Assembly (NCBI GenBank): GCA_041648295.1
Contig: JBAZPF010000002.1
Span: forward strand, 1 to 36,789
From: Candidatus Margulisiibacteriota bacterium
GTDB lineage: Bacteria > Margulisbacteria > WOR-1 > XYC2-FULL-46-14 > WPAF01
Length of the DNA stretch: 36,789 nucleotides
Reading direction: 5' to 3'
This document shows, piece after piece, positions 4,383 to 28,640 of the stretch (its first letter is position 1; each line of letters begins with the position of its first letter). The translations under genes and the position numbers were made by a program. The notes below the pieces were generated by a model. That model ran no database searches. It was not told where the DNA came from and was given only the letters and a program-made list of their open reading frames with translations.

Positions 4383-5302
4383 GATTTCAATTTAATGCCG
4401 TCCCAAAGCGCGGAAAATATTTGGCGGGTCTCCTCATAAAGCGCTTTGTATTCACGGATATTAAAACCCTGGACCAGATCGGCGTTGCCGGTTTTTTCTG
4501 CCAAGACCCTGATAGCGGCCGCGGAACTGAAGGTCACTACATCTCTTGGATCGCCGATCATGTCTCTAATGTCTTCTCTTATCACACTGCCGTTGGCCGG
4601 TTTATCAGGCATGGTCAAAACCGCGATCCGGTTTGCGACCACTTCACCGAGAGCGAACAGCAAGCAGTCCATAATAAACTCCGCCGATTCATAATCTTCG
4701 TTTTCTGCCGCTATTTTTTCGTAGATCCTATAAATATCAAAGGCTTCGCTTTTTAGGCCCGTTACAAATGGGCTTGAAATTCCTTCCGCCAGCGAGCGGG
4801 CAAAGATCTTAAGTAGATCAAGCGCTTTGAGCTTATCAAGATTTCCCGCCCGGACGAGGCGCATATGTTGGGCGGCCCAAGTTTTTGTATTTTCGGAAAC
4901 TCCCTGCCAGAGGATATTATGATCCAGGGTCAATACGTGGCCATATTCATGCGCCAGATAAAAATCGAATTTCTTTAATAAGCTCAGAGGTGGATTCTGA
5001 GACGGATTTATGATCAACTCTTTTCCGACGATCGCGATCGGATCGTCGATCATGCCTTTTTTCTCGTCCGTAAACGCCACGCTGGTTATTTTTACTGGTT
5101 CAAATGAAGGCCCAAAGAGGCTGAATAAACGCCGCTCAAACGATCCAATCTTCCGCACAACTCCCTGCAGAATAGCGTTGGTATAGCCATGATGCTGTGC
5201 AACGGCTGCTCCGTATAAGCGGGCCGCATTGGCCGGCGGCGGTGTTGATCCAATAGTACTCATACTATAGTATCTTTGGTTTAGTTCGAATATTTCACTC
5301 AA
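4373..5302 (-). CDS. Putative zinc metallopeptidase (HExxH; motif context resembles ImmA/IrrE-type FxLAHExGH)
   Basis: 309 aa with FYLAHEYGHVLTLDH. The start is uncertain (TTG at 5302, or ATG 39 nt downstream at 5263), and no clear SD precedes either. Confidence 0.6.
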   Translation of the reverse strand: MSEIFELNQRYYSMSTIGSTPPPANAARLYGAAVAQHHGYTNAILQGVVRKIGSFERRLFSLFGPSFEPVKITSVAFTDEKKGMIDDPIAIVGKELIINPSQNPPLSLLKKFDFYLAHEYGHVLTLDHNILWQGVSENTKTWAAQHMRLVRAGNLDKLKALDLLKIFARSLAEGISSPFVTGLKSEAFDIYRIYEKIAAENEDYESAEFIMDCLLFALGEVVANRIAVLTMPDKPANGSVIREDIRDMIGDPRDVVTFSSAAAIRVLAEKTGNADLVQGFNIREYKALYEETRQIFSALWDGIKLKSWE

Positions 5303-5330: not shown

Positions 5331-6071
5331 TTATTTTAGCCCCGCCAGCTTAATGCTTGCGGCATATTGAGCGAAAGGGACCTCGTCCAAGACTTTCAGC
5401 TTTTTAAATCCGGCTTTCTTTGCAAAGCCGATATAATCTTTTTTAAGCACCGCGCCGGCGATACAGCCAACATAAGCTTTTTTTGAATTCTTTACGGACG
5501 CGGGCAATTCTTTTAAGAGAACGATATCGGAGACCATCAATCGGCCGCCTTTCTTGAGAACGCGAAAGGCCTCTTTAAAGACCTTGGCTTTATCCGGCGA
5601 GAGATTGATAACACAATTGGAGATAACGATATCGATCGAATTATTTTCGACCGGCAACTGTTCGATCTCGCCCAGCCGGAATTCGACATTAGAATATTTC
5701 CCTTTGCGTACATTCTGCCTCGCCTTCTCGATCATTTCGGGCGTCATGTCGACGCCGATGACCTTGCCTTTTTTACCGACTCTTCTAGCGGCGAGGAAGC
5801 TATCGAAACCGGGACCGGAACCGAGGTCAAGGACGATTTCGCCCGGTTTGATGGATGCGAGCGCAATGGGGTTGCCACAACCGAGGCCGAGGTTGGCGCC
5901 TTCGGGAACCGATGATATCTCTTTATCGGAGTAGCCGATTGCTTTGCTGGCCGCTTTCGCTTCACTTCCACAGCACGGTTCATTCGCCGCACTGCAGCAA
6001 CAGGAACTACTCTTTTTAGCGATCACCCCGTAGTTTTCACGAACTTTTTGTTTTATATTTTTGGATTTCAT
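5331..6071 (-). CDS. arsM: Arsenite S-adenosylmethionine methyltransferase-like (ArsM family)
   Basis: 246 aa. Cys-rich N-terminus ([14 protein letters not shown]), SAM motif [11 protein letters not shown], and conserved Cys contexts [12 protein letters not shown] and VGCIAGA typical of ArsM. SD GAGGAG lies 6 nt upstream, preceded by TATAAT. Confidence 0.8.
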
Positions 6072-6161: not shown

Positions 6162-6830
6162 TTATCCGGTAAGGTCTGCAGGGACATAATGATATTTTTC
6201 CACTAAAACATTAAATATCCTAAGGCTCAATTTTAGAAATTCTACTCCTCTTGAATAATTCAGGCCCTCTTTCTCCTCTGTTTTCGCTGCGGTTCGCAGG
6301 GAATCGATCTTTTCTGCCGTTATCCCCAGGTCACGCATTGCCTGATCGACTGCTTCACATTTTGGCCGAGTGAGGCCAATAAGGCTCGGCTCGCGATAAA
6401 ATCCATCGGGAAAGTATAATGGAAAATTGTTGAGGTAAGAACCAAGGCCCAGCCACAGGTCACGATCATTATAAGAATCAGGCTGTAGAAGCAGCTCTTT
6501 TAACCTTTGCCTGGTCTTTTTGGCAATTGGATCATCATAGAAACCTTTTATGCTGTCTATTAGGAGCTGATCGTTCGGATCACTGGCTCTAAATAAATGA
6601 CAATTTTTAATCGGGAGAAAACAGTAACGATAAAAAGGGTCTTCGCGCATCATCTGAATGGTCCGCGCCGGTATCTCGCGCAATCCCATGAATCGGGCTA
6701 AATCAACAATTTGGCGCAATAGATTGTACGTTCTTCCGGGATTAAGAGGCAAGCCTGTTTTTAACGGCTGAAGGCGCAAGCCCGCGCCGCTAAATTTTAT
6801 TCTATCAAAGACAGAAATATCATATGCCAT
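6162..6830 (-). CDS. Hypothetical protein
   Basis: 222-aa ORF with normal-looking composition. No motif recognised. Confidence 0.6.
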   Translation of the reverse strand: MAYDISVFDRIKFSGAGLRLQPLKTGLPLNPGRTYNLLRQIVDLARFMGLREIPARTIQMMREDPFYRYCFLPIKNCHLFRASDPNDQLLIDSIKGFYDDPIAKKTRQRLKELLLQPDSYNDRDLWLGLGSYLNNFPLYFPDGFYREPSLIGLTRPKCEAVDQAMRDLGITAEKIDSLRTAAKTEEKEGLNYSRGVEFLKLSLRIFNVLVEKYHYVPADLTG

Positions 6831-6850: not shown

Positions 6851-6966
6851 AATAATGAAAAATTTCAGAGAGAACCGGAAGAGAAGCCAACCAAACGAAT
6901 GGGATTTATTGCGGAATAACGTGCCGAGTCCGTACGGACGAGGCACACATCAATTCGTCATTAATC
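6851..6966 (+). repeat. Bracketing element, copy A (AATAATGAAA ... hairpin GTGCC-GA-GTCCGTACGGAC-GA-GGCAC ... ACATCAATTCGTCATTAATC)
   Basis: It shares ordered blocks with copy B at 13727-13785 (AATAAT..GAAA, TGCCGA, CGAGGCA, ACAT, ATTCGTCATTA, ATC). The hairpin lies at 6921-6946. Confidence 0.7.
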
Positions 6967-7011: not shown

Positions 7012-7650
7012 TCATGACAGATTTTGCAAAATAAATTCCTCTGTGAAGCTTATAAGACTTTTAACGTTTTGCATATCTATTTTGCTCCAATCAGCGTGAA
7101 AAGCCTTATTCCGCGTTTGCACATAAGAAGATAATAAACTAGCTTGCGGACCTTTAATTAATCCTTTGCTTTTAATAGCGTTAATCACTTCTGACATATC
7201 TTTTCCTTCTACATCCAATCCATTTAATGCTGAATATCTTTTTAATGCATCTTCAATTGCGGCCGAAGCTAAAACGGCAGCAACATCTTTTTGACCATCT
7301 TCAGCAATTGACTTCGACAACGCAAGAAAATCAGCAACCACACTACCAATAACTTGTTTTTCTAAATTAAAAATTAATTCATTACTTATATCTGATCGTA
7401 TGCCTTTTAAAACACCCAACAAATAATCTTTACATTCTTGCATAGAACTTGTTTGCCAAGAAACGGAATCATATATTTTAACTTTATAATCAGACATAGT
7501 TTTCAGCCTTGTATCATTCCTACCGTATAGATTCTCAATTATTGTCACTGTCCTAAAATAGACCTGGTTGATTATCTCAGGCGTAATTCCCACATTAAAC
7601 AGAGAAACAATTTCATCCACAATGCGCGAATAATCTTCTTTCTTTTTCAT
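7012..7650 (-). CDS. HEPN-like protein (Abi_C / DUF4145-like C-terminal domain with Rx4H motif)
   Basis: 212 aa. The C-terminal helical region ...AAIEDALKRYSALNG...LSSYVQTRNKAFHADW carries R-N-K-A-F-H (Rx4H), the HEPN catalytic signature. SD GGGGGA is upstream. The gene is AT-rich. Confidence 0.55.
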   Translation of the reverse strand: MKKKEDYSRIVDEIVSLFNVGITPEIINQVYFRTVTIIENLYGRNDTRLKTMSDYKVKIYDSVSWQTSSMQECKDYLLGVLKGIRSDISNELIFNLEKQVIGSVVADFLALSKSIAEDGQKDVAAVLASAAIEDALKRYSALNGLDVEGKDMSEVINAIKSKGLIKGPQASLLSSYVQTRNKAFHADWSKIDMQNVKSLISFTEEFILQNLS

Positions 7651-8370: not shown

Positions 8371-8579
8371 TGACTGGAAAATCAAAGAAACCTAAAAATG
8401 GGACATCTCATAAAGAACATAATAAAAAAGTAAAGTTTTCTAATAAAGGTGTAATGCGTGGACGTTCAGGACAAGGCGCTTCAGTTGTTAATTGTTTTGG
8501 TTGCAAAGCAATGGATTATGATGAAATATTAAAAATACTGAAGCCCAATGGAAGAAAAAAGAAGAAGAAAAAAGCATAA
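8370..8579 (+). CDS. Lys-rich mini-protein, hypothetical
   Basis: 69 aa. The ATG directly abuts the preceding TAA stop (TAAATG). Very basic, ends in KKKKKKA, with a single CFGC. The coding status is plausible but unproven. Confidence 0.4.
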   Translation: MTGKSKKPKNGTSHKEHNKKVKFSNKGVMRGRSGQGASVVNCFGCKAMDYDEILKILKPNGRKKKKKKA

Positions 8580-8676
8580 CCACTTTAAAATACAAAATAA
8601 ACCTTTCAGAGCAACAAACCTCATCAGCACTCAGGCATCATTGCTTTTTTCCGTAAACAGCGTAGAATTTCTGCAT

Positions 8677-9078
8677 ATGATGCATGGGAAAGATAATCCA
8701 GTAAACATCTTAATCATTTATGATGAGCCTAGTGTTGTGGAATCTCTTAAAATGATTTTTTTGATCAAGGACTACAATGTTTTATCCGCCAGAAATGCTA
8801 AACAAGGAATGGAATTAATTAGCCCTGATATAAATATCATTTTTTTAGGGTTTCGTATACATGATTTAAATATTATTAATGCTATCCATGAGATTAAGAA
8901 ATTAAACCCCAATATTCCAATAATTTTATTTTCTGCTTATGAAAATAATCAATTTATAGCCGATTTGAAAAATGCTGGCGCATATGAATTCCTTTGTATG
9001 CCTTTTATGATGGAACAAGCATATGAGCTTATTTATAAGGCAATTGATTTTCAAGAGAAGCATAAAAAAGAAGGTTAA
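8677..9078 (+). CDS. Stand-alone response-regulator receiver domain, atypical (pseudo-receiver)
   Basis: CheY-like pattern NILIIYDEPSV...INIIFLGFRIHDLN...PIILFSAY...GAYEFLCMPF. The phospho-acceptor Asp position is Gly (FLG) and the conserved Lys of KP is Met (CMP). The start is taken at ATG 8677 (MMHGKD); the track ORF begins at 8548, but that extension is low-complexity. Confidence 0.7.
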   Translation: MMHGKDNPVNILIIYDEPSVVESLKMIFLIKDYNVLSARNAKQGMELISPDINIIFLGFRIHDLNIINAIHEIKKLNPNIPIILFSAYENNQFIADLKNAGAYEFLCMPFMMEQAYELIYKAIDFQEKHKKEG

Positions 9079-9132: not shown

Positions 9133-9175
9133 CCCCCCATCTTTTGGTGTCAATGTCTTGGAAGAGGAAGGTGGG
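9133..9175 (+). repeat. Island motif copy 1 (ccccccatcttttggtgtcaatgtcttggaagaggaaggtggg)
   Basis: Read directly. It folds as an imperfect hairpin (C-rich arm / TCTT ... AAGA / GGTGGG arm). It begins 55 nt past the receiver gene stop. Confidence 0.9.
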
Positions 9176-9183
9176 AATGAGGG

Positions 9184-9239
9184 GCTGAAGGACTAAGGGA
9201 CTGAGGAACTAAGGAACTAAGGAACTAGGGACAAGGGAC
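9184..9239. repeat. 8-bp-period degenerate array, GGACTAAG type (7 units)
   Basis: gctgaagg actaaggg actgagga actaagga actaagga actaggga caagggac; the phase is kept throughout. Confidence 0.9.
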
Positions 9240-9252
9240 TATTATTGCCGCT

Positions 9253-9711
9253 TTACTGATAGATCTTCTTTCCTCGTCTAAAACTTGGGTCGGGATCCCA
9301 GGCGCTCGGACCTGCCAGGTCTTCGATAAGATCAAAAGAATCGGCGCTTTCCGTAAAAGCGTCCAGCTTTTCCGGTAGCCGACTTAACCTATCGAGCAAG
9401 CCTCGCGCTTTCATATTGACAGCCGCGAACATTCTCAAATCGTCGCCCTTCAGCTTCAGCGCCGGATTTATTCGGATCGTTTCCCGAACATCGCGCAACA
9501 TCCGCAGCGAAATAGTCGCCATCTTCTTAAGTTGAACAGCCATCGTTTTATTGATCGTTCCGGAATGACCCAGATCTTCCGCTTTGCTGATAGCCGCTTC
9601 AAACGTGGAGAGCTTTTGCTGATAAGCCGGAAAGCTCGATCTCATAGCGAATATTCTTCGGGAAAATATTTGCCCTGCGTTAACAGGATTGATACCGGCT
9701 AGTTTTGGCAT
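9253..9711 (-). CDS. Hypothetical protein
   Basis: 152-aa ORF with no recognised motif. GATAAG lies 5 nt upstream of the ATG and there is no SD, so it is possibly leaderless. Confidence 0.55.
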   Translation of the reverse strand: MPKLAGINPVNAGQIFSRRIFAMRSSFPAYQQKLSTFEAAISKAEDLGHSGTINKTMAVQLKKMATISLRMLRDVRETIRINPALKLKGDDLRMFAAVNMKARGLLDRLSRLPEKLDAFTESADSFDLIEDLAGPSAWDPDPSFRRGKKIYQ

Positions 9712-9878
9712 ACTGTCTTATCTGCGCTATTTAAGAATAATTTCAGTTCTTTCTAAAACACTGTGTGTGTATACTTCCCATTTGACAAAGATCCGCTTTA
9801 GATCAACCAGTATGGTTTGTCTGTCTGCTGGGAATTAATGCCGTTGGGGTGCTGGAGATCATCTATATCTCGTTCTTT

Positions 9879-9932
9879 CAGAAGAAACAGAAGAAACAGA
9901 AGAAACAGAAAAACCAAAGAATTCAAATCAAA
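9879..9932. repeat. 9-bp-period array (CAGAAGAAA x3 perfect, then 3 decayed units)
   Basis: cagaagaaa cagaagaaa cagaagaaa cagaaaaac caaagaatt caaatcaaa. It overlaps the stop codon of the 9928-10620 gene. Confidence 0.9.
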
Positions 9933-10620
9933 GGATATAACTGATCCCTATCAGGAAATTCGAAACCCCGCCATTAAAATGCGAAGACGACGGCGTACCG
10001 TCAATATTCCCGGCTACCGGAACATTTATGAACCCGGGAGCATATGAAAAGCTTAACAATAAATTCCAGAAATATTTTTTAACCGTGAGAGGAAATGTGA
10101 CCATGTATCCCGTGCCGCTGAAACTGGAATAACTATCAATATAGGGGCTCTGGCCATATATTTTGCTGCCTGTCTTTCTTATGTTCAGATAGTCAATGCG
10201 AACGCCAAGATCATATTCAATAAGCGAAGCAGCCGAGCGGAGATCCAAAACATAGAGCAGCTCCAGAAAATAATTATTTAAGAATAAATTATAGGCTTCA
10301 TCATTGGTGCCGCCGAAAAAAGAAGCGTTATGCCGGCCCCAGCCTTCAGAAAAAACCCCGGTCCCAAGAGAATATTTAAATCTGTTCTTTGACGGGAAGC
10401 TTAATTTAAGCTCAATCCCGGTAAGATTGGCATTTATTGGCTCATTACCCGTAAGGACAGCCGCATTTGGAGCGGTCAAAAATGAATAATTGACCTCAAT
10501 GTTCCTATTTTTAAAATTACTCAAGAGATCGGCAGCTTCATCGGCCAAAGAAATATTGGTCGAGGCTATGGTTAGAAATAACAGAAAAATCAGTATTTTT
10601 TTATTATAATCATAAGTCAT
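9928..10620 (-). CDS. Putative outer-membrane beta-barrel protein
   Basis: 230 aa. Signal peptide (KKILIFLLFLTIASTNISLA), alternating hydrophobic/aromatic beta-strand-like pattern, rich in G/Y/S/N. No family assigned. Confidence 0.6.
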   Translation of the reverse strand: MTYDYNKKILIFLLFLTIASTNISLADEAADLLSNFKNRNIEVNYSFLTAPNAAVLTGNEPINANLTGIELKLSFPSKNRFKYSLGTGVFSEGWGRHNASFFGGTNDEAYNLFLNNYFLELLYVLDLRSAASLIEYDLGVRIDYLNIRKTGSKIYGQSPYIDSYSSFSGTGYMVTFPLTVKKYFWNLLLSFSYAPGFINVPVAGNIDGTPSSSHFNGGVSNFLIGISYIL

Positions 10621-10626
10621 GTCGTA

Positions 10627-10655
10627 ATTGTCCCACCCTGCTCTTTTGGTGTCAA
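10627..10655 (-). promoter_or_regulatory. Motif-embedded promoter: TTGACA-17-GACAAT, 6 nt before ATG 10620
   Basis: The - strand reads TTGACA (10655-10650), a 17-nt spacer ccaaaagagcagggtgg, GACAAT (10632-10627), tacgac, then ATG. The alternative is that GGGTGGGA acts as a weak SD. Confidence 0.45.
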
Positions 10656-10678
10656 TGTCTTGGAAGAGGAATGTGGGA
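10632..10678 (+). repeat. Island motif copy 2 (cccaccctgctcttttggtgtcaatgtcttggaagaggaatgtggg)
   Basis: Read directly. Hairpin CCCAC-CCTG-CTCTT-loop-AAGAG-GAAT-GTGGG. 10642-10709 matches 9140-9207 at 64 of 68 positions by hand alignment. Confidence 0.9.
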
Positions 10679-10685
10679 GCGAGGG

Positions 10686-10717
10686 GCTGAGGGACTAAGG
10701 GACTGAGGATTCAGCAC
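10686..10717. repeat. 8-bp-period array, GGACTAAG type (3-4 units)
   Basis: gctgaggg actaaggg actgagga ttcagcac. Confidence 0.8.
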
Positions 10718-10726
10718 AAATATTCC

Positions 10727-10755
10727 TTGACTTGGTATAACTTATAAGTTATATT
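10727..10755 (+). promoter_or_regulatory. Sigma70-like promoter of the XRE-Fic operon (TTGACT-17-TATATT)
   Basis: TTGACT at 10727-10732, 17-nt spacer, TATATT at 10750-10755. SD GGGGG lies upstream of ATG 10808. Confidence 0.65.
10736..10753. promoter_or_regulatory. Operator-like perfect 18-bp palindrome O1 (TATAACTTATAAGTTATA) inside the promoter spacer
   Basis: Self-complementarity checked by hand. It overlaps the spacer and the -10 element. Confidence 0.7.
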
Positions 10756-10768
10756 TATTGCTTAAGAT

Positions 10769-10786
10769 TATAACCTATAGGTTATA
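10769..10786. promoter_or_regulatory. Operator-like perfect 18-bp palindrome O2 (TATAACCTATAGGTTATA)
   Basis: Same half-site TATAAC..GTTATA as O1. The centres are 33 bp apart, and O2 lies in the predicted 5' UTR. Confidence 0.7.
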
Positions 10787-10807
10787 TTTGCATAAAAGGG
10801 GGTAAAT

Positions 10808-11257
10808 ATGGCAGATTTAAAGGGGTTAAAATTAAAGCAAATTTCCGAAGCGGTCAAAGCAGTCCGCCCAGTGCCGGCTGAAAAGATAGGCCAGCGGATC
10901 CGTGATATCAGGGAAGCTCTCGGTATGACGCAAAAACAACTGTCAAAAAGACTAAAGATCAGCCAGCCGCTGCTTTCGCGAATAGAAGAAAATGCGGAGG
11001 CCTGCGCGATTAAAACTTTAGTTAAAATAGCTCAAGGGCTGGAATGTGAATTTATGGGGGTTATAGTTTCAAAAGAAGGCTTGGAGAAAACCATCAATAA
11101 ACAGGCCGAAATAAAAGCCAGGGAGATGCTAAAACGGACCTTTGCCAATATGGCTATGGAAAAACAGGCGCCAACCGATAATGCGTACGCCTATCAATTT
11201 AAAAAGCTTACCGAGGAACTGGCAAACAATCCGGGACCTAACCTCTGGGAGAAATAA
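10808..11257 (+). CDS. XRE-family HTH protein, 'mobile mystery protein A'-like (putative antitoxin/regulator)
   Basis: 149 aa. HTH_3 pattern IGQRIRDIREALGMTQKQLSKRLKISQPLLSRIEENAE. The stop abuts the ATG of the Fic gene (TAAATG). Confidence 0.8.
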   Translation: MADLKGLKLKQISEAVKAVRPVPAEKIGQRIRDIREALGMTQKQLSKRLKISQPLLSRIEENAEACAIKTLVKIAQGLECEFMGVIVSKEGLEKTINKQAEIKAREMLKRTFANMAMEKQAPTDNAYAYQFKKLTEELANNPGPNLWEK

Positions 11258-11851
11258 ATGCCTTTTTTGGAAGATGTCCCCGGGGCAACGCCCGTAGAAG
11301 ACATTTCAGATCTTATCCCTTCCCATATAACGACCCGTTCAGAATTGAACGAATGGGAAGCCGCCAATATCCTTAAAGCGACCAGACACTATTTAACGGA
11401 AAAAAGAAAACTTGAGATCGATGTTGCCTGGTTGAAAAAACTGCATAAGGAAATGTTCGATGAAACATGGAAATGGGCGGGCCAATTCAGGCAAAAGAAT
11501 TTCAATTTGGGCATTGATTGGCATAATATCAATGACCAAGTAAAGGCGCTTATTGATGATATGGTTTTTTGGAAAAAGGGGCCGATGGATCTAAGCATTT
11601 TTGATCAAAGCATTCGCGTCCATCATCGGCTTGTTAAAATCCACCCTTTCGTGAATGGTAATGGCCGGCATGCGCGATTGGCATCTGATATATTTCTTTA
11701 TTATAATAACCATAAACTTCCGACCTGGCCCAGCCAATCATTGCTTGAAGAAAGCGATGTAAGAAAACGTTATATCACTGCCCTTCAGGAAGCAGATAAG
11801 GGAAATTACAAACTGTTGGAAAAATTCACTGATGATTTGATAAGTAAATAA
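11258..11851 (+). CDS. Fic-domain protein, 'mobile mystery protein B'-like (putative toxin)
   Basis: 197 aa. Fic motif HPFVNGNGRHARL (HPFxxGNGRxxR). The N-terminal GATPVEDISDLIPSHITTRSELNEWEAANI is typical of the TIGR02613 family as I recall it. Confidence 0.85.
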   Translation: MPFLEDVPGATPVEDISDLIPSHITTRSELNEWEAANILKATRHYLTEKRKLEIDVAWLKKLHKEMFDETWKWAGQFRQKNFNLGIDWHNINDQVKALIDDMVFWKKGPMDLSIFDQSIRVHHRLVKIHPFVNGNGRHARLASDIFLYYNNHKLPTWPSQSLLEESDVRKRYITALQEADKGNYKLLEKFTDDLISK

Positions 11852-11852
11852 T

Positions 11853-11880
11853 CCCCCCACCCCCATCTTTTGGTGTCAAC
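11853..11880 (+). repeat. Island motif copy 3 (ccccccacccccatcttttggtgtcaac)
   Basis: Read directly. It begins 2 nt past the Fic stop codon. Confidence 0.85.
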
Positions 11881-11883
11881 TCT

Positions 11884-11897
11884 TCAGCAGATCAGGA
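11884..11897 (+). repeat. 14-bp direct repeat TCAGCAGATCAGGA, copy 1
   Basis: Identical to 11951-11964. Confidence 0.9.
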
Positions 11898-11898
11898 T

Positions 11899-11920
11899 AC
11901 CTGCCTGCCGGCAGGCAGGT
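11899..11920. repeat. Perfect 22-bp palindrome ACCTGCCTGCCGGCAGGCAGGT
   Basis: Self-complementarity checked by hand. It lies between the two 14-bp direct repeats. Confidence 0.9.
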
Positions 11921-11950
11921 CAGGGAATCAGTGGGAAGAGAATCGGCGTA

Positions 11951-11964
11951 TCAGCAGATCAGGA
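11951..11964 (+). repeat. 14-bp direct repeat TCAGCAGATCAGGA, copy 2
   Basis: Identical to 11884-11897. It is followed by the small hairpin TCAGG-AAAAA-CCTGA. Confidence 0.9.
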
Positions 11965-11968
11965 AAAA

Positions 11969-12032
11969 CCTGATGCCCTGATTATCTGATATTCTGCCTG
12001 CTGATATTCTGATAATCTGATATCCTGCCGAG
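11969..12032. repeat. 8-bp-period array, CTGATAWT type
   Basis: cctgatgc c ctgattat ctgatatt ctgcctg ctgatatt ctgataat ctgatatc ctgccgag. One unit is 7 nt. Confidence 0.85.
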
Positions 12033-12055
12033 CCCCCTCTTTTAGTGTCAAATTG
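12032..12055 (+). repeat. Island motif copy 4 (gccccctcttttagtgtcaaattg)
   Basis: Read directly; a diverged copy in the same orientation. Confidence 0.75.
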
Positions 12056-12070
12056 TTTGTATTTTGCTTT

Positions 12071-12118
12071 TTGGTTATTGGAATTTGTTTGGTTATTGTT
12101 TCTTGATTATTGGTTATT
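12071..12118. repeat. TTGGTTATT word x3 at 18- and 21-bp spacing
   Basis: TTGGTTATT occurs at 12071, 12089 and 12110, in T/G-rich low-complexity sequence directly 3' of the ICMT-like gene. Confidence 0.8.
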
Positions 12119-12134
12119 AAAGAAGCTGGGAATT

Positions 12135-12842
12135 TTACCAAATCAATGGGATAAGCCGGTATCGGGCCTTCTTTGTATATTCAACATACCCTTCGAGCTC
12201 TTTTTGCAACGTCGCATCCTCCAGCGCGGTGCGGATCACAAACAATAAAGCGGTAAAGAGTGAAGCGAAAAGCGCGTAAAAAGAGCCGACGATCATTGGA
12301 AATGAAAAATACAGTAAGATGAACGCGATATAGCCCGGATGCCGGACAATGGCATAAGGCCCGGTAGAAACTACCTTTTGCCCCCGCTCCTTCTGGATCC
12401 GGACCCCAAGCTCAAAGAATTTGTTCTCCATAAGCGCCCACTCGGAAAGGAACATCGCAAAAAGCAGAGAGATCACCCCGGCGACCATCCACCAGATATT
12501 AAGCTCCGACCAGTTATATCTCCCGACATCAAGCCCGGCAATGATCGGTATCAGGATCATTGTGACGATCGAATAGAAGACCGCAAACAATTTGTCCCAG
12601 ACCTTCGGCATCTTCATTTCACCTCGGGCATTGACCACTTCGGCCATCTCCGGGAAGCGGGTAAACAACAGAATAAAGAAGAACGTCTGACAAAGCATTA
12701 TAACAATAAAATAAACCCAGGCGCGCATAAGATCAATCCTTCCGGCCGCGGCAAAAAAGAGGACGGCATTTAATAACATGACCAGATAGATCACGATGAT
12801 CCGTTTATAACCCGAGCTTGTGAGCTTTGGCTTTTCGTTCAT
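12135..12842 (-). CDS. Isoprenylcysteine carboxyl methyltransferase (ICMT/PEMT)-family membrane methyltransferase
   Basis: 235 aa, multi-pass membrane protein. VVSTGPYAIVRHPGYIAFILLYFSFPM matches the ICMT-family TxGxYxxxRHPxY block. Confidence 0.75.
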   Translation of the reverse strand: MNEKPKLTSSGYKRIIVIYLVMLLNAVLFFAAAGRIDLMRAWVYFIVIMLCQTFFFILLFTRFPEMAEVVNARGEMKMPKVWDKLFAVFYSIVTMILIPIIAGLDVGRYNWSELNIWWMVAGVISLLFAMFLSEWALMENKFFELGVRIQKERGQKVVSTGPYAIVRHPGYIAFILLYFSFPMIVGSFYALFASLFTALLFVIRTALEDATLQKELEGYVEYTKKARYRLIPLIW

Positions 12843-12848
12843 GAGGAT

Positions 12849-12877
12849 ATTCTCCCACCGTGGTCTTTTTGTGTCAA
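12849..12877 (-). promoter_or_regulatory. Motif-embedded promoter: TTGACA-17-GAGAAT, 6 nt before ATG 12842
   Basis: The - strand reads TTGACA (12877-12872), a 17-nt spacer, GAGAAT (12854-12849), atcctc, then ATG. The alternative is that GGGAG serves as an SD 9 nt upstream. Confidence 0.45.
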
Positions 12878-12884
12878 TGTGTGG
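12852..12884 (+). repeat. Island motif copy 5 (ctcccaccgtggtctttttgtgtcaatgtgtgg)
   Basis: Read directly. Confidence 0.85.
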
Positions 12885-12890
12885 AAAGGG

Positions 12891-12946
12891 GCTAGGAACT
12901 GTGGGACTAAGGGGCTAAGGGACTAAGGGATTGAGGAATCAGGGAT
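12891..12946. repeat. 8-bp-period array, GGACTAAG type (7 units)
   Basis: gctaggaa ctgtggga ctaagggg ctaaggga ctaaggga ttgaggaa tcagggat. Confidence 0.9.
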
Positions 12947-12959
12947 TATAATGGGATTA

Positions 12960-12988
12960 TTGCATATTTACTCGCAATGCCATATAAT
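12960..12988 (+). promoter_or_regulatory. Promoter TTGCAT-17-TATAAT, 7 nt before ATG 12996 (leaderless)
   Basis: TTGCAT at 12960-12965 and TATAAT at 12983-12988. There is no SD in the 7 nt before the ATG. Confidence 0.55.
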
Positions 12989-12995
12989 TATCACC

Positions 12996-13217
12996 ATGGT
13001 TCCCGAACAAAAAAGAAAACATCAAGATTTTGAGTGGTTAGGGAAAAATATGCATAAATTACAGCAAAAACATGCCGGTAAAGTAGTGGCGGTTGTCAAT
13101 AAACATGCAAGCATCGGTAAAAATGCCATTGAGGCTTATAAAATATCCAGGAAACAATATCCCGACAATGAACCAGTAATGTCTGCGATCCCCACTAAAG
13201 ATGCCCTCTTATTATGA
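12996..13217 (+). CDS. DUF5678-like small protein
   Basis: 73 aa from ATG 12996. EWLGKNMHKLQQKHAGKVVAVVNKHASIGKNAIEAYKISRKQYPDNEPVMSAIP fits the DUF5678 pattern as I recall it. The track start at 12951 lies inside the repeat array. Confidence 0.65.
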   Translation: MVPEQKRKHQDFEWLGKNMHKLQQKHAGKVVAVVNKHASIGKNAIEAYKISRKQYPDNEPVMSAIPTKDALLL

Positions 13218-13615
13218 TCAAATACGACTGGCATGAGGAGTATTCCGAATCCTTCGGATTAGTCAAAAGACCGGTTGCTGAAATCCATATGAAAGATAAA
13301 AATAAGATCTGGCGCGCAATCAACATGTATGTGGATTCTGGCGCTGATGTAAGCATTATTCAAAATAGTTTTGGTGAATTATTCGGACATAATGTTGAAA
13401 AAGGCCGTAAAATCAGGTTAAAAGGCATTGGCAAAGAAGAAATAATTGCTTATATCCATAAAATGGATTTACTGATCGGCGCTCATGAAGTAAATATTGA
13501 AGTGGCAATTGGCGAAAATGATAACGTCCCAAATGTTCTTGGCCGCAAGGGTGTCTTTAATTTTTTCGAAATCCAGTTTAAAAATAAAGAAGAAGCTACT
13601 CACTTTTTGAAATAA
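13214..13615 (+). CDS. Retropepsin-like (clan AA) aspartic protease
   Basis: 133 aa with YVDSGADVSII (the D-S/T-G-A active-site motif). It overlaps the upstream gene by 4 nt (ATGA). Confidence 0.75.
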   Translation: MIKYDWHEEYSESFGLVKRPVAEIHMKDKNKIWRAINMYVDSGADVSIIQNSFGELFGHNVEKGRKIRLKGIGKEEIIAYIHKMDLLIGAHEVNIEVAIGENDNVPNVLGRKGVFNFFEIQFKNKEEATHFLK

Positions 13616-13640
13616 TCACATTAGCTACCAAACTGTTTAG

Positions 13641-13672
13641 CCACCCCCATCTTTTGATGTCAATGCTTTGGG
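13641..13672 (+). repeat. Island motif copy 6 (ccacccccatcttttgatgtcaatgctttggg)
   Basis: Read directly. It begins 26 nt past the protease stop codon. Confidence 0.85.
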
Positions 13673-13676
13673 AAAT

Positions 13677-13711
13677 AATTACGAATTGCGAATTACTAAT
13701 TATGAATTGTT
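13677..13711. repeat. 7-bp-period array AATTNNN (5 units)
   Basis: aattacg aattgcg aattact aattatg aattgtt. Confidence 0.9.
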
Positions 13712-13726
13712 GTGTCTCTGCGCGAC

Positions 13727-13785
13727 AATAATATGAAATGCCGAACGAAGCGAGGCATACATTCATTCGTCATTAGTCATTAATC
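13727..13785 (+). repeat. Bracketing element, copy B (AATAATATGAAA-ATGCC-GA-ACGAAGC-GA-GGCAT-ACATTCATTCGTCATTAgtcattaATC)
   Basis: Same ordered blocks as copy A. The hairpin lies at 13738-13758 and its closing pair is A-T, versus G-C in copy A. It includes a TCATTNN 7-bp x3 array at 13763-13783. Confidence 0.7.
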
Positions 13786-13800
13786 CCCATCAATGTCTTG
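13785..13800 (+). repeat. Island motif copy 7, internally deleted (ccccat/caatgtcttg; lacks CTTTTGGTGT)
   Basis: It matches both ends of the consensus, with the central 10 bp missing. Confidence 0.6.
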
Positions 13801-13803
13801 CCG

Positions 13804-13832
13804 TTGACAAATATTCGCGGGAATAAGATAAT
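13804..13832 (+). promoter_or_regulatory. Sigma70-like promoter TTGACA-17-GATAAT for the small membrane protein gene
   Basis: TTGACA at 13804-13809 and GATAAT at 13827-13832. SD GGAGG at 13839-13843 lies 8 nt before ATG 13852. Confidence 0.65.
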
Positions 13833-13851
13833 AATTCCGGAGGAAAATGAA

Positions 13852-14022
13852 ATGAAAGACAAAGGATTTTTCGGCGGAGTATACGGGTTGGCTTTTATCG
13901 GCGCTCTGGTTTATTACATTCAGCACTCGACTTCTTTTCTAAACGGCGTGGTTGGAATTCTAAAAGCCTTATTTTGGCCGGCGGTGCTGATGTTCAAAGT
14001 GCTTGAACTCCTGCATATGTAG
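13852..14022 (+). CDS. Small two-helix membrane protein, hypothetical
   Basis: 56 aa from ATG 13852 (MKDKGFFGGVYGLAFIGALVYYIQ...ALFWPAVLMF). The track start is a TTG at 13798, upstream of the promoter -10. Confidence 0.6.
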   Translation: MKDKGFFGGVYGLAFIGALVYYIQHSTSFLNGVVGILKALFWPAVLMFKVLELLHM

Positions 14023-14249: not shown

Positions 14250-16694
14250 ATGAACAGCTTTCTTCAAGAATTAAAAAAGAGAATATTGGTCGTAGACGGC
14301 GCCATGGGGACGCTCCTCATGAACGCGGGCGTGCGGCCGGAAGAAGGTTTTGACCTCCAGGTACTAAAAAGACCGGAAATCGTCAAGTCCATCCACAAAT
14401 CCTATATCGATGCCGGCGCGGATATCATCGAAACCTGCACATTCGGCGCTAATCGAATAAAACTCGCCGACTATCTCGCGCAGGATAAAGTTGCCGAAAT
14501 AAATAAAAAGGCGGTCGCATTGGCGAAAGAAGCAGCCAACGGAAAAGCCTTTGTCTGCGGATCAATCGGCCCTCTGGGCAAATTCCTCCGCCCAATGGGC
14601 GAAGTTTCGTTTGATGAAGCGTTTGATACTTTTGCCGAACAGGCCAAAGCGATGGAAGAAGCCGGCGCCGATTGCGTATCGATCGAAACTATTTCCGACT
14701 TGCAGGAAATGAGAGCGGCCGTGATCGCGGTAAAACAAAATACAAAACTTTCCATCATCGCCAGCCTGACTTATGATGAAAATGAGCTGACCGTTTTTGG
14801 GACATCGCCCGAGGCCGCGGTCGTGACGCTTGAAGCGCTTGGGATCGATGTTATCTCCGCCAATTGCTCTACCGGTCCCGAAGGGCTTTTAAAAATAGCA
14901 AAGAGATATCTGGCCGCGACCTCTCTTCCGGTCATGGTCATGCCCAATGCCGGCATGCCGGTCATTGAAGGTGATCGCGCTATTTATAAAATGACACCGG
15001 ATAAGTTTGGAGTGTTCGCCGGCAAGTTCGCCAAGCTTGGAGTTTCGATCATTGGTGGCTGCTGCGGGACGACACCGGAACATATAGCTGCGGTGAAATC
15101 CTCATTGGAACCGCGAGGTTCACTCGCAGGTTCCAATGGACGCCGCGGTTCCTTCGCCTCCCGCAGCAAAGTCATCGAATTAAAACCCGGCAAACTGCTC
15201 GCGATCGGTGAAAAGATAAATCCGACCGGAAAGAAACTGATGCAGGCGGAAATAAAGAATAACCGCTTCGGGATCATAAGGGACGAAGCGGTCGCGCAGA
15301 CCAAAGCCAAAGCCGATTTGCTTGAATGCAATATCAGCGTTCCGGAAGCGGACGATAAGGCCAATATCATGCAGGCGATCGATATTATCTCAAAAGCGTC
15401 AACCCTGCCTTTGTCGATCGACTCTCCTAACCCGTCCGTCCTCGAAGCGGGTCTTAAAGAATTTTGCGGCAGAGCTTTGCTTAATTCGGTTAATGGAAAA
15501 AAAGAAAGCATTGAAAAAGTGATCCCATTGGCAAAAAAGTACGGCGCCTCGATCATTGCCCTTGCGCTTGATGAAAAAGGGATCCCAAAAACGGTAAATG
15601 AAAAAGTCGCTATCGTCAAAAGAATAATTGACGCCGCAATTGAACATGGTATATCAAGGAATTCGATATTTGTCGACGCGCTCGTTATGACCGCAGGGGT
15701 AAGCTTAAACGACAGCCTGGAAACGTTAAAGGCAATCCCGGTCATCAAGGAAAAGTTCGGGGTCAACACCAGTTTGGGCATAAGCAATGTCTCGCATGGT
15801 TTGCCAGACCGGGCAAAAATAAACGCCCTCTATCTCCAGCTCGCCCTGCTCTACGGCCTGGATGCCGCCATTATTGACGTAACCGATAAAGAGATCAAGA
15901 AGGTTTTAAAAGGACAAAAAGAACTGTTAAAAGGCGACCAGAAGAAAAAGATCGAAAAATTTACCGCTTTGCTTAAAAAGGAAGTTGATAAAGCGCGCGC
16001 CCTGCCGAAAATAAAAACGGAAGAAAAACTATCCGTGAGGAAAGCATCCAAATTCACCAGCCTGTCCGACATCAAAAATGCCGTGATCGCGGGAGACGGG
16101 GAAAAGGTCGTTCAACTCGTAACCGAAGCTTTAAATAAAAATCATCCGCCGCAAAAGATAATCGACGCCGCCCTGGTCCCCGGGATGGAGATCGTCGGGG
16201 AAAGATTTTCAAAAAAAATATACTTCCTGCCGCAGGTTTTGGCATCAGCGGAAGCAATGGCCTCCGGGTTCAAACTCTGCAAAGAAAAGATCCCCAAAGA
16301 GAGCATTAAAAATGTCGGAAAGATACTGATCGCCACCGTCCGCGGCGACATTCACGATATCGGGAAAAATATCGTTAAAATGATGCTTGAGAACCATGGA
16401 TTTGAAGTGATCGACCTGGGCAAAGACGTGCCGCCAGAGATCATAATCGAAAGAGCAAAAAAAGAAAAGCCGAACGCCATCGCCCTCTCCGCTCTGCTGA
16501 CGACTACCATGCTTGAGATGAAAGTGGTAAAGCAGGAGCTGGACGCGGCGGGATTGAATATACCGGTCATCATCGGCGGCGCCGTAGTAACAAACGATTA
16601 CGCGGAAAGGATCGGAGCCTCGTACGGATCGGACGCGGCTCGCGCGGTAGCCCTGGCAAAAAAGATAATCAGCCTGCCAGCTGGTGGACGGTAA
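14250..16694 (+). CDS. metH: Cobalamin-dependent methionine synthase, short form (Hcy-MT + pterin-binding + B12-binding domains; no AdoMet reactivation domain)
   Basis: N-terminal homocysteine S-methyltransferase domain (VVDGAMGT..., IIGGCCGTTPEHI), central pterin-binding region, and C-terminal B12 domain with the DxHxxG motif (GDIHDIGKN). The protein ends right after the B12 domain. Confidence 0.9.
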   Translation: MNSFLQELKKRILVVDGAMGTLLMNAGVRPEEGFDLQVLKRPEIVKSIHKSYIDAGADIIETCTFGANRIKLADYLAQDKVAEINKKAVALAKEAANGKAFVCGSIGPLGKFLRPMGEVSFDEAFDTFAEQAKAMEEAGADCVSIETISDLQEMRAAVIAVKQNTKLSIIASLTYDENELTVFGTSPEAAVVTLEALGIDVISANCSTGPEGLLKIAKRYLAATSLPVMVMPNAGMPVIEGDRAIYKMTPDKFGVFAGKFAKLGVSIIGGCCGTTPEHIAAVKSSLEPRGSLAGSNGRRGSFASRSKVIELKPGKLLAIGEKINPTGKKLMQAEIKNNRFGIIRDEAVAQTKAKADLLECNISVPEADDKANIMQAIDIISKASTLPLSIDSPNPSVLEAGLKEFCGRALLNSVNGKKESIEKVIPLAKKYGASIIALALDEKGIPKTVNEKVAIVKRIIDAAIEHGISRNSIFVDALVMTAGVSLNDSLETLKAIPVIKEKFGVNTSLGISNVSHGLPDRAKINALYLQLALLYGLDAAIIDVTDKEIKKVLKGQKELLKGDQKKKIEKFTALLKKEVDKARALPKIKTEEKLSVRKASKFTSLSDIKNAVIAGDGEKVVQLVTEALNKNHPPQKIIDAALVPGMEIVGERFSKKIYFLPQVLASAEAMASGFKLCKEKIPKESIKNVGKILIATVRGDIHDIGKNIVKMMLENHGFEVIDLGKDVPPEIIIERAKKEKPNAIALSALLTTTMLEMKVVKQELDAAGLNIPVIIGGAVVTNDYAERIGASYGSDAARAVALAKKIISLPAGGR

Positions 16695-17819: not shown

Positions 17820-19244
17820 ATGAAAATGGGAATAAGACCGACTTCCGGATTTTTTGACTTCTGGACCTCTAGACTTCTGGACTTCTGGACCTTAAAAAAT
17901 AGGTCTAGAGGTCTAGCGGTCAAGCAGTCTAGCTGCCTGGCGGTCATGCTCGGCCTTCTTATCTTACAGTCCGCCTGCCCCGCCCTGACCCTTAAAGAAA
18001 GCATAGATATCGCTTTAAAGGAGAATCCGTCGCTCCAGGCCGCGCAAAAAAAACTTAATGCCGCGGATGCCCGTTTTGCCCAGGCGGTCGGTTCTTTCTT
18101 CCCGACTATAAAAGTTGACGGGAGCATCAGCAGAAACTACCAGCAGCCTTCGACCGTTCAGATCACGAGCCAAACCTCTGCGGGAGCGATCACCCAAAAT
18201 CTGTCGTTTGGCACCGATTCCACGTCAGACATGAAAAGCATAAAAACTTCCTTGAACCAGCCGATCTTTGTCCCTGCCCTTTTCCCGGCTGTAAAGATCG
18301 CCCAAAAAAGCCTGGACCTGGCAAAAGAAGACTTTAAAAAGGCAACGCTTGAAACTTCTTTTAACGCCATCCAGGCTTATTTTAATGTGATAAAAGCTGA
18401 AAAAATGGCAACATTCGCGGAACAATCAAAAGAAATGGCGAATTCTCATCTGGACCAGGTAAAAGCAATGCTTGCCGCCGGCGTCGTCACCCGGGCCGAC
18501 CTGCTCCGAACAGAAGTTCAGTTTGATAATTCCGAAGTCGCTTTGACGCGGGCAAAAAATGCCCTTGAACTGGCAAAGGACGCGTTCAATAACGCTCTCG
18601 GGCGCGACCTGGAAACAGATATTAAGCTCAAGGAAGAAGGCTTTGCCGGCACGGTTTCAAATATTCCCGATTACAAAGACCTTCTTAAGCTGGCGTTTGA
18701 ATACCAGCCCGAATGGAAACAATTTATATTATCGAAACAAATAGGCGAAGAAAATGTCTGGGTAACAAAAACCGGTTACCTGCCAAATGTCTTCCTTTCC
18801 GGCCAGACCGGAAATCAGATCGTGGACTACCCCACATTCAAAACGGACACGAATTCATGGTCGATTATCGGCTCGGCTTCCTGGACGCTGTTTGACGGCC
18901 TCGCCACCCAGAATAAAATAAAAGAAGCGGAAGCCAACCTTGATGCCCAGCAAGCGTCCGAAGAACAGATCAAGAACGGGATCACGCTTCAAGTCCGCGA
19001 CGCTTATTTAAGTCTCACAAGTTCGCTTGATACCATAAATTCCGCAAAAAAAGCGGTCGAATCCGCCGAAGAAAATGAAAAAGTTTCTTCCCTGCGTTTT
19101 GCCTCCGGCGTCGGCACCAACATTGAAGTGCTCGACGCCCAGGTTTCCCTCACTCAGGCAAGGACAAATTACCTGCAATCTCTTTTTGATGTGGAGATTG
19201 CAAAGGCCAAACTTAATAAAGTCGTCGGATGGGAGGTCATTTAA
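17820..19244 (+). CDS. TolC-family outer membrane efflux protein (start ambiguous: ATG 17820, 17826 or 17946)
   Basis: TolC/OEP-like repeats start at LKESIDIALKENPSLQAAQ. The signal/lipobox-like LLILQSAC follows M43. The first 42 codons are encoded by the 8-bp repeat array. TATAAT lies at 17800-17805. Confidence 0.85.
   Translation: MKMGIRPTSGFFDFWTSRLLDFWTLKNRSRGLAVKQSSCLAVMLGLLILQSACPALTLKESIDIALKENPSLQAAQKKLNAADARFAQAVGSFFPTIKVDGSISRNYQQPSTVQITSQTSAGAITQNLSFGTDSTSDMKSIKTSLNQPIFVPALFPAVKIAQKSLDLAKEDFKKATLETSFNAIQAYFNVIKAEKMATFAEQSKEMANSHLDQVKAMLAAGVVTRADLLRTEVQFDNSEVALTRAKNALELAKDAFNNALGRDLETDIKLKEEGFAGTVSNIPDYKDLLKLAFEYQPEWKQFILSKQIGEENVWVTKTGYLPNVFLSGQTGNQIVDYPTFKTDTNSWSIIGSASWTLFDGLATQNKIKEAEANLDAQQASEEQIKNGITLQVRDAYLSLTSSLDTINSAKKAVESAEENEKVSSLRFASGVGTNIEVLDAQVSLTQARTNYLQSLFDVEIAKAKLNKVVGWEVI
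17856..17943. repeat. 8-bp-period array, 11 units (GACTTCTG type, then TCTAGNGG type), inside the 5' end of the TolC-like ORF
   Basis: gacttctg gacctcta gacttctg gacttctg gaccttaa aaaatagg tctagagg tctagcgg tcaagcag tctagctg cctggcgg. Confidence 0.9.
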
Positions 19245-28636: not shown

Positions 28637-28640
28637 TTCT

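Follow-up and report, generated by a model that had tools for sequence, protein, structure and literature searches.

We analyzed a 36,789-nt stretch of a contig from Candidatus Margulisiibacteriota (JBAZPF010000002.1), hereafter the window, which carries a short repeated motif at the boundaries of several small gene modules. Otherwise the contig is ordinary chromosome, with genes for ThiC, an aconitase-family protein, MetH, TolC/MacAB, GH57 glycogen metabolism, and ThyX. The GC content is 0.31–0.45 in the region of the motif versus ~0.49 in the flanks, and the low-GC stretch covers ~7–14 kb. A sequence-only reading of the window had compared the motif to the boundaries in an integron-type cassette array and had mentioned a family-specific promoter as another possibility. 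Our analysis of the motif (by mismatch searches, shuffles, a profile, and comparison of loci) supports the promoter.

The modules among the motif copies are listed in Table 1. The calls of XRE/mobile mystery protein A, Fic/mobile mystery protein B, the ICMT-like methyltransferase, DUF5678, and the retropepsin-like protease were confirmed. The modules lie on both strands, and the XRE, DUF5678, and small membrane-protein genes have promoter-like sites of their own. Homologs of the window's proteins came from sources named Margulisbacteria, Saganbacteria, or WOR-1. We designate the loci of these relatives by L-numbers; they are on metagenome contigs of the Margulisbacteria/Saganbacteria type, and L030 is from a Candidatus Margulisiibacteriota metagenome-assembled genome.

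Copies of the motif

A search for the 16-mer TCTTTTGGTGTCAATG with up to three mismatches gave six matches, all on the + strand (at 9140, 10642, 11866, 12038, 12864, and 13650), which we call M1 to M6. The chance expectation, from shuffles, is 0.42 matches, and six matches were reached in 0 of 100 shuffles. We also built a profile from 22 copies of the motif, from the window and its relatives, and ran it with nhmmer --max (speed filters off). Across the 36.8 kb it found only the same six copies, with E values of 2e-9 to 2e-5. A seventh site (M7', 13785–13800) reads CCCCAT followed directly by CAATGTCTTG, and 16 of its 16 bases match the consensus on either side of a 10-nt deletion; it is a genuine relic that has lost TTGACA. 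All of the copies in the window are intergenic, confined to 9.1–13.8 kb, and at module boundaries. The sequence-only reading was therefore correct that there are six copies and one 10-bp-deleted copy in a single orientation, only at module boundaries and nowhere else in the window. Its motif length of ~30 bp holds for the core, and some copies are similar over a longer span: M1 and M2 are 94% identical over 68 nt (9140–9207 and 10642–10709). On the + strand, tandem repeats of 7–9 nt lie 3' of every copy in the window.

In searches of genome contigs, the exact 16-mer gave ~120 single chance matches in unrelated taxa, and only the match in L030 is genuine; there, one exact motif match is followed by the same GGGACT octamers as in the window. 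A 19-base pattern matched eight loci among metagenome contigs, of which only L128 is a relative, and two motif scans of viral contigs gave zero matches.

The motif is predicted to be part of a leaderless promoter

Read on the minus strand, the motif is CA-TTGACAC-n-AAAAGA-nnn-GGGTGG. M2 reads TTGACA-CCAAAAGAGCAGGGTGG-GACAAT-TACGAC-ATG, in front of the gene at 9928–10620, and M5 reads TTGACA-CAAAAAGACCACGGTGG-GAGAAT-ATCCTC-ATG, in front of the ICMT-like gene (12135–12842). In both, TTGACA begins 35 nt upstream of the A of the ATG, a 17-nt spacer follows, and a TGn stands ahead of the -10 box; there is no Shine-Dalgarno sequence, and the ATG is at the expected transcription start. The consensus runs from a C/T-rich tract upstream through TTGACAC, n, AAAAGA, tGGGGGTGG, GAGAAT, and 6 nt to the ATG, with the final TGG of tGGGGGTGG providing the TGn of the extended -10. 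A -35 box, a spacer of 16–18 nt, a -10 hexamer with A2 and T6, and the TGn were found together in M2, M5, and 14 further copies in relatives, and not in M3, M4, or M6; in M1 the spacer is 19 nt. The ATG lies 6 nt past the -10 box at M2, at M5, at the orthologs of the ICMT-like gene in L128, L129, L132, L134, and L136, and in L142 and L143/L144 (5 nt in L134 at 14827). When 28 copies of the motif were aligned at the -35 box, the conserved block ran from 0 to +22 from this box and included the -10 box in the complete copies. Upstream of this block, the tract is mostly pyrimidine-rich and its sequence is not conserved.

These results support the view that the motif comprises the -35 box and conserved spacer of a minus-strand promoter of the sigma-70 type, of a class that is specific to this lineage. 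Because the ATG is 6 nt after the -10 box, at the expected start and without a Shine-Dalgarno sequence, the mRNAs from M2 and M5 are predicted to be leaderless. Leaderless starts appear to be common in the source organism, because several other genes of the contig, housekeeping genes among them, share this layout with a TATAAT box. Specifically, TATAAT-N6-8-ATG without a Shine-Dalgarno sequence precedes 603–1124 (- strand), DUF5678 (12996, +), MetH (14250, +), 28679–30814 (-), and the start at 34343 (+). The longest-ORF (open reading frame) starts of MetH (14244) and DUF5678 (12951) are probably too far upstream.

The predicted promoter is kept by orthologs and is found before unrelated genes

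The ICMT-like protein has many orthologs, at 59–88% identity. In L128, L129, L132, L134, and L136 the layout is identical to that in the window, with TTGACA 35 nt ahead of the ATG. No clear copy was seen upstream of the gene in L139, where the profile match is weaker, or upstream of the gene in L138 (72% identity). For the 230-aa gene downstream of M2, the protein collection contains only two homologs (in L143 and L144, 72% and 65% identical). Both have TTGACA-17-GAGAAT-6-ATG in front, next to different neighbors; the start of the L143 gene was called 25 nt too early.

The promoter also precedes genes that are unrelated to these: a DUF6036 gene (L134 14827, leaderless), an RF-1/ArfB-like gene (L140 8065), a DUF167 gene (L142 9356, leaderless), a 79-aa gene (L140 2381), and probably a GmrSD gene (L139 15460). 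Because the promoter is kept in orthologs and is found before unrelated genes, it is best described as a putative promoter class of the lineage that stays with the genes it drives. The family-specific promoter of the sequence-only reading is supported in that TTGACA-17-GA(G/C)AAT-6-ATG stands on the minus strand at two genes and is kept in their orthologs.

The motif had seemed a candidate part of the XRE-Fic module, which was the best candidate for a mobile one, as a copy lies divergently upstream of XRE in three genomes and three contexts (the window, L140, and L142). We rejected this as the main explanation because the promoter persists in orthologs of the 230-aa gene that have no XRE-Fic beside them, and because XRE-Fic in L141 has no motif. 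On the Fic side, the next copy is at the stop codon in the window, past a DUF167 fragment of ~80 nt in L142, and past a whole ArfB-like gene in L140.

Copies without a gene

Besides the 14 complete copies with a gene (M2 and M5 not counted), the relatives have six truncated copies that lie 50–216 nt upstream of a co-oriented gene and four gene-less copies that face a convergent gene; together with the four orphans in the window there are eight of the latter kind. M1 has no ORF downstream and faces the 3' end of a response-regulator gene (8548–9078, + strand). In M4 and M6, the similarity stops after the G-tract. M7' is just upstream of the + promoter of the small membrane-protein gene (TTGACA-17-GATAAT, 13804–13832). 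Within each locus, all of the significant copies are on one strand.

Table 1. Gene modules, motif copies, and tandem-repeat tracts of the array in the window.
Feature	Position	Strand	Description
Two-gene module, putatively driven by M2	9253..10620	-	Proteins of 230 aa (9928-10620) and 152 aa (9253-9711), neither with a family match
XRE/Fic (mobile mystery protein A/B)	10727..11851	+	Own putative promoter TTGACT-17-TATATT at 10727-10755, with two palindromic operator-like sites
ICMT-like methyltransferase	12135..12842	-	Lineage-conserved (59-88%); stable bearer of the promoter
DUF5678 and retropepsin-like protease	12983..13615	+	Own putative leaderless promoter: TATAAT 12983-12988, 7 nt, ATG 12996
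Small membrane-protein gene	13804..14022	+	Own putative promoter; ATG 13852
M1, degenerate orphan	9134..9164	-	-35 box, AAAAGA, and 68 nt upstream 94% identical to M2; GAGAAT at 19-nt spacing
M2, complete putative promoter	10626..10666	-	TTGACA 10655-10650, spacer CCAAAAGAGCAGGGTGG with TGn, GACAAT 10632-10627, ATG 10620
M3, truncated orphan	11850..11890	-	G-tract directly adjoins the stop codon of Fic (11849-11851); -10 box and gene lacking
M4, truncated orphan	12027..12059	-	TTGACACTAAAAGAGGGGGC, then octamer repeats of the ATCAG type; no -10 box, no gene
M5, complete putative promoter	12847..12887	-	TTGACA 12877-12872, spacer CAAAAAGACCACGGTGG, GAGAAT 12854-12849, ATG 12842
M6, truncated orphan	13635..13674	-	TTGACATCAAAAGATGGGGGTGG, then CTAAAC; faces the 3' end of the protease gene
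M7', relic	13785..13800	-	10-nt internal deletion; most of the -35 box and the A-tract gone
Octamers of the AAGGAACT/GGGACTAA type	9173..9232		Upstream of M1 in promoter orientation
Octamers GAGGGACT	10675..10708		Upstream of M2, in the gap that separates it from the divergent XRE promoter
Repeats flanking M4	11970..12118		TCTGATAT x5.5 (11985-12027); TTGGTTA x7.3 (12071-12118)
Octamers GGGACTAA	12895..12942		Upstream of M5
Heptamers AATTACG (13677-13708) and TCATTAG (13763-13782)	13677..13782		M6-M7' gap, with a small hairpin between the heptamers

The array lies in a hypervariable region

An ICMT-like gene and an S-adenosylmethionine (SAM)-methyltransferase gene (5331–6071 in the window) are both present in the window, L132, L134, and L139, and the 3.5–9 kb between them share no genes. 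The array is in this hypervariable interval, which in the window reaches from the SAM-methyltransferase gene to MetH and whose genes are different in each relative that we examined. L132 is otherwise syntenic with the window (LDcluster4, the aconitase-family gene, the methyltransferase ... ICMT, MetH), and its ICMT and MetH genes are divergent neighbors, 73 nt apart. The window exceeds L132 by 1357 nt from the -35 box of M5 to the MetH promoter, and the surplus holds octamers, the DUF5678 and protease genes, M6, M7', and the small membrane-protein gene. The last of these flanks ICMT on the opposite side in L128 and L134, and only a relic or fragment of it is found in L030 and L136.

At the strain level, L129, L130, and L131, from three samples, encode an identical ICMT protein and diverge directly after an ORF6N gene: L130 and L131 run into a gene of the 23S-IVP family, and L129 runs into octamer repeats and an orphan copy, so that the junction is in the octamer tract. 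In L134, a 506-nt block with a YgaP-like gene is duplicated (86% identity), and the block ends at most ~100 nt from two copies of the motif; the two copies are nearly identical to each other, octamer tracts included. L136 has a stray 50-nt piece of the ICMT gene's 3' end (13245–13294), 88% identical to 10679–10728 of the same locus and 2.5 kb downstream of the intact gene, and this piece directly attests to earlier duplication and shuffling in the hotspot. The locus is a region of recurrent duplication, deletion, and replacement.

The sequence-only reading had proposed to look for gain or loss of single modules between syntenic loci with breakpoints inside the motif. The turnover of modules was found; the L129 versus L130/L131 junction is in the octamers and not in the motif.

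Some side observations concern these loci. The ICMT fragment in L136 adjoins a piece that is similar to the end of the DUF6036 gene of L134. ORF6N (KilA-N-like) genes, often with a gene for a 23S-rRNA-IVP/bAvd four-helix bundle, recur beside ICMT, sometimes twice per locus (L129 10974–11480 and from 12638; L134 13968–14706; L138 10693–11591; L139 12835–13780; L140 2485–2994 and 4165–4707). In the window, two genes without a family match (418 and 309 aa; 3126–5302) lie between the methyltransferase and aconitase-family genes. The methyltransferase and aconitase-family genes are adjacent in L132, a second indel difference, with no motif copy nearby. In L142, a second copy of the promoter stands right after Fic (10560–10654, - strand) and is followed by the first ~25 codons of a DUF167-like frame (MTEILVE...) that runs antisense into the 3' end of Fic; a full DUF167 gene with its own copy lies beyond XRE-Fic. 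In L141, XRE-Fic is flanked by a different direct repeat of ~130 nt (~3550–3720 and 4965–5095), which hints that XRE-Fic entered as one unit, by a route that does not involve the motif.

Features of recombination sites

No integrase, transposase, or recombinase was found among the ORFs of the window with Pfam and NCBIfam, as the sequence-only reading had reported for integrases. The same scans gave no hidden recombinase in the unannotated ORFs at 1198–1746, 3126–4382, 4373–5302, 6162–6830, 7012–7650, 9253–9711, and 9928–10620. For nine related loci, we checked precomputed Pfam hits within 10 kb, and no recombinase was listed. We found no inverted repeats flanking or spanning the copies and no tRNA gene nearby that could be an integration target. 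The core TCTTTTnnTGTCAA lacks dyad symmetry, and its copies share a single orientation. The RYYYAAC/GTTRRRY cores of attC sites are absent from the sequence. When folded as single-stranded DNA, both strands of the M1, M2, M5, and M6 units showed no excess over shuffles (z of -0.8 to +1.5); the exception in the folding analysis is a GC palindrome at 11901–11920, which exceeds the shuffled controls. With permissive thresholds, Rfam gave just one chance snoRNA-like match in 6–15 kb. We also found no features of a miniature inverted-repeat transposable element (MITE) or a Correia element: terminal inverted repeats, target-site duplications, and fixed outer ends are lacking, the flanks are variable, and the core alone is shared.

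Promoter reuse as the probable origin of the array

We think it likely that the array reflects the reuse of a promoter, along with relics that were left by duplication and replacement in a hotspot, and not an integron-like boundary. RNA polymerase with a sigma-70-family factor would start at the A of the ATG and produce a leaderless mRNA. M2 and M5 are intact and would drive the genes at 9928–10620 and 12135–12842. M1 would be a recent duplicate of the region upstream of M2, with a spoiled spacer; M3, M4, and M6 appear to be cut within or just after the G-tract, and M7' to be internally deleted. We infer that the dead copies are relics, still young, of units in which a promoter was joined to a gene. 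Their common orientation would follow from direct duplication on a local scale, or from unequal crossing-over between tracts of promoter and octamers, and the insertion of foreign modules, or replacement by them, some on the opposite strand, would have removed the -10 box and the gene.

Several observations weigh against this explanation. First, four of the six copies in the window have no gene, yet their first 20–23 nt are near-perfect, which would not be expected of decaying relics, except of young or constrained ones. Second, all eight of the orphans that face a convergent gene are on the strand of the working copies. We estimate the chance of this at ~1 in 256 if the orientations are independent; local direct duplication would yield a shared strand. 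Third, ~11 copies lose similarity within one stretch of 13 nt, from AAAAGA to the -10 box. This clustering could indicate a preferred junction rather than random truncation, with bias in detection and classification contributing, and it remains the single feature that a simple model of decaying relics does not predict. The one-strand order, the clustered truncation points, and the near-perfect cores of the orphans leave a small probability for a role in recombination.

One alternative is that the octamers and the motif together form a small non-autonomous mobile element that carries a promoter and is comparable to Correia, ERIC, or REPIN sequences. Such an element would spread copies through intergenic DNA, some of which would come to lie where a gene can use them. 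Near-identical copies do stand before non-homologous genes or before none (L132 11219–11249 and L134 14826–14856, from two genomes, are 100% identical over 31 nt), and M1 and M2 share 68 nt at 94% identity. In the window, L030, L134, and L136, the motif is accompanied by an upstream octamer tract, and both promoter-bearing repeats and putative mobile promoters have been documented (PMC3575422). However, we found neither terminal inverted repeats nor target-site duplications nor fixed outer boundaries, the upstream units differ between copies (GGGACTAA, TTGGTTA, and AATTACG), and no transposase or RAYT-like gene was seen. The restriction to one strand per locus and to variable islands also fits local duplication better than transposition, and we consider such an element unlikely.

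Another possibility, which we also give little chance, is that the left half of the promoter (the octamers, TTGACAC-n-AAAAGA, and the G-tract) doubles as a favored junction or anchor for the exchange of modules, by way of a trans-acting recombinase or of homology-facilitated recombination. Homologous or homology-facilitated recombination may use the promoter and octamer tracts as anchors. If the left half does have this second role, then the locus would be a cassette system without a local integrase, in which each insertion leaves a copy in the same orientation and could supply a neighboring gene with a ready-made leaderless promoter.

We consider it about equally unlikely that the motif, or its left half and the G-tract, is an att-like crossover site for a recombinase that is encoded elsewhere, with each integration leaving a copy on each side. 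Such a site would account for the single strand per locus, which extends to orphans beside genes on the opposite strand, and for the many truncated copies that end in the same G-rich stretch of ~13 nt. In the ~200 kb that we examined, copies were seen only in variable intergenic DNA, and they were absent from ~100 kb of conserved flanks. Copies accompany XRE-Fic in three different contexts, flanking it in the window and L142 and preceding it in L140, and one of the breakpoints between the window and L132 is at the upstream edge of M5. Against this, neither the ORFs of the window nor the Pfam hits listed within 10 kb of the related loci include a recombinase, and the motif has no dyad symmetry, inverted-repeat core, or single-strand hairpin. 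The junction on the Fic side varies among the window, L142, and L140, and XRE-Fic in L141 is flanked by another repeat. The strain-level junction between L129 and L130/L131 is in the octamers and hence outside of the motif. Furthermore, the motif stays with the gene in orthologs and hence is not a property of the neighboring cassette. Because the junctions are variable and the promoter stays with its gene, site-specific recombination at the motif is disfavored.

It is very unlikely that AAAAGA and the G-tract bind a dedicated regulator or an alternative sigma factor, with the orphans acting as antisense or convergent promoters or as roadblocks. The spacer is conserved far beyond the needs of a generic sigma-70 promoter; M1, M3, and M6 are 2–55 nt past the stop codons of + strand modules and point inward, a layout that is repeated downstream of Fic in L142 and of other genes in L129 and L132; and no intrinsic terminators were predicted at the 3' ends that face M1, M3, and M6. 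But three of the four orphans in the window have no acceptable -10 box at 16–18 nt, the genes with the promoter share no evident function (ICMT, a protein without a family, DUF6036, ArfB-like, and DUF167), and no candidate regulator travels with the motif.

Our results give no support to an integron-type cassette array itself: we found neither an integrase nor an attC-like hairpin nor an inverted-repeat core. Of the cassette logic, the module-turnover hotspot stands and the motif as an integron-like boundary does not. What survives of the idea is that the turnover in the hotspot is real and that the truncated one-orientation copies mark old junctions.

Comparison to known systems

M2 and M5 resemble leaderless promoters of the sigma-70 extended -10 type in their TTGACA, 17-nt spacer, TGn, hexamer with A2 and T6, and ATG at the expected +1. 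The class differs in that its consensus -10 box is GAGAAT rather than TATAAT and in that the spacer, C-n-AAAAGA-tGGGGGTGG, is conserved across genes and genomes, unlike that of ordinary promoters.

Putative mobile promoters are similar upstream sequences before non-homologous genes, with no known vehicle (Matus-Garcia, Nijveen, van Passel 2012; PMC3575422). They were defined by an identity of 80% or more over 50 nt or more, at positions -150 to -50 from the starts of non-paralogous genes (PMC3575422). The promoter described here is likewise similar upstream of non-homologous genes, within and between genomes, and is not accompanied by a recognizable mobile element. Unlike the published cases, it forms a local one-strand array in a hotspot, with many truncated gene-less copies and with octamer tracts. 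M2 and M5, in front of the unrelated 230-aa and ICMT-like genes, are 79.8% identical over 94 nt, and the region that the published definition considers is ill-suited to leaderless genes. The array is probably a new example, in an uncultured phylum, of a known phenomenon, the reuse of promoters.

Like integron arrays, the locus has modules of one or two genes, including a toxin-antitoxin-like pair, a repeat in one orientation, and variable content. In contrast to integron arrays, no IntI, attC hairpin, or R'/R'' cores were found, and the repeat is a predicted promoter that stays with its gene. Furthermore, the modules are in both orientations and have their own promoters, and do not form a co-oriented set that is driven from Pc. 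The pdif modules of the Xer/dif system have 28-bp sites, with two inverted 11-bp arms and a 6-bp spacer, that alternate in orientation; TCTTTTnnTGTCAA, without dyad symmetry and in a single orientation, does not resemble these. It also differs from MITE and Correia elements, as the inverted repeats and fixed outer ends of such elements were not found at the copies.

The minimal mobile elements of Neisseria are hotspots between conserved genes whose content is exchanged by homologous recombination. The locus is similar in that conserved flanks (the SAM-methyltransferase gene on one side and ICMT or MetH on the other) bracket unrelated sets of genes, a likeness of gene layout only. It is dissimilar in having repeated promoters and octamer tracts inside the locus.

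The short tandemly repeated repetitive (STRR) sequences of filamentous cyanobacteria are tandem repeats of the 7-bp class in intergenic regions and promoters, and some of them can form hairpins (PMC2670836). The tandem tracts of 7–9 nt that accompany every motif copy in the window, and those at 17840–17932 and 28640–28680, resemble STRR sequences, in appearance only. They differ in occurring in a non-photosynthetic sibling group of Cyanobacteria and in having units of mostly 8 nt and of many different sequences, and we make no claim of homology. One published STRR unit, TTGGTCA, is close to the TTGGTTA at 12071–12118. Tracts of this kind in a sibling lineage of the cyanobacteria may bear on the unexplained origin of those repeats.

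This analysis provides a predicted promoter consensus with a leaderless start for an uncultured phylum, and it helps to correct the calls of start codons, as for L143, MetH, and DUF5678. In the literature, as far as we searched, we found no mapped promoters for this phylum. The locus also documents promoter reuse and its probable relics within a hypervariable chromosomal hotspot, and it is a caution for scans for cassettes: a one-orientation repeat at the boundaries of small accessory modules is not necessarily a site of recombination.

Tandem repeats and other repeat families

Tandem Repeats Finder identified tracts with a period of 7–9 at 9173–9232, 9879–9914, 10681–10708, 11970–12029, 12053–12118, 12903–12930, 13677–13708, 13763–13782, 17840–17932, and 28640–28680, and similar tracts are present in L129, L134, L136, and L142. 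Such repeats abound in the intergenic DNA of this lineage. The units are diverse and include GGGACTAA, TCTGATAT, TTGGTTA, AATTACG, GACTTCTG, and CAGAAGAAA, among others. The two opposed octamer arrays at 17840–17932 form a long hairpin in the leader of a TolC-like gene, for which the ATG at 17946 is probably the true start. The 36.8 kb contain just two canonical G-quadruplex motifs (four runs of at least three G, with loops of up to 7 nt), at 10675–10701 and 12903–12929 on the + strand. Both are in the octamer tracts immediately upstream of the intact M2 and M5, between divergent promoters.

A second repeat family is represented at 6921–6966 and 13741–13784, at both ends of the low-GC stretch, by a small hairpin followed by ACAT(T)CATTCGTCATTA(G/A)TC. 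A TAATGACGAAT look-alike comes after a motif copy in L129 (11570–11600). This family could mark the ends of an island or be a plain intergenic repeat. We considered whether its 28-nt repeat (6939–6966 and 13751–13778) represents att sites at the ends of an island. We set this aside and treat it as an intergenic family, because the similarity is short (~45 nt, with a gap) and because the look-alike in L129 is beside a motif copy.

Two palindromes also recur. The 20-nt GC palindrome CCTGCCTGCCGGCAGGCAGG is identical in the window (11901–11920) and in L129 (12505–12524, within the leader of an ORF6N gene) and is beside a motif copy in each. A 32-nt palindromic repeat, TTGGAACCGCGA...TCGCAGGTTCCAA, occurs at 15105–15136, inside the MetH reading frame, and at 23315–23346, between convergent genes, and its two copies are 88% identical.

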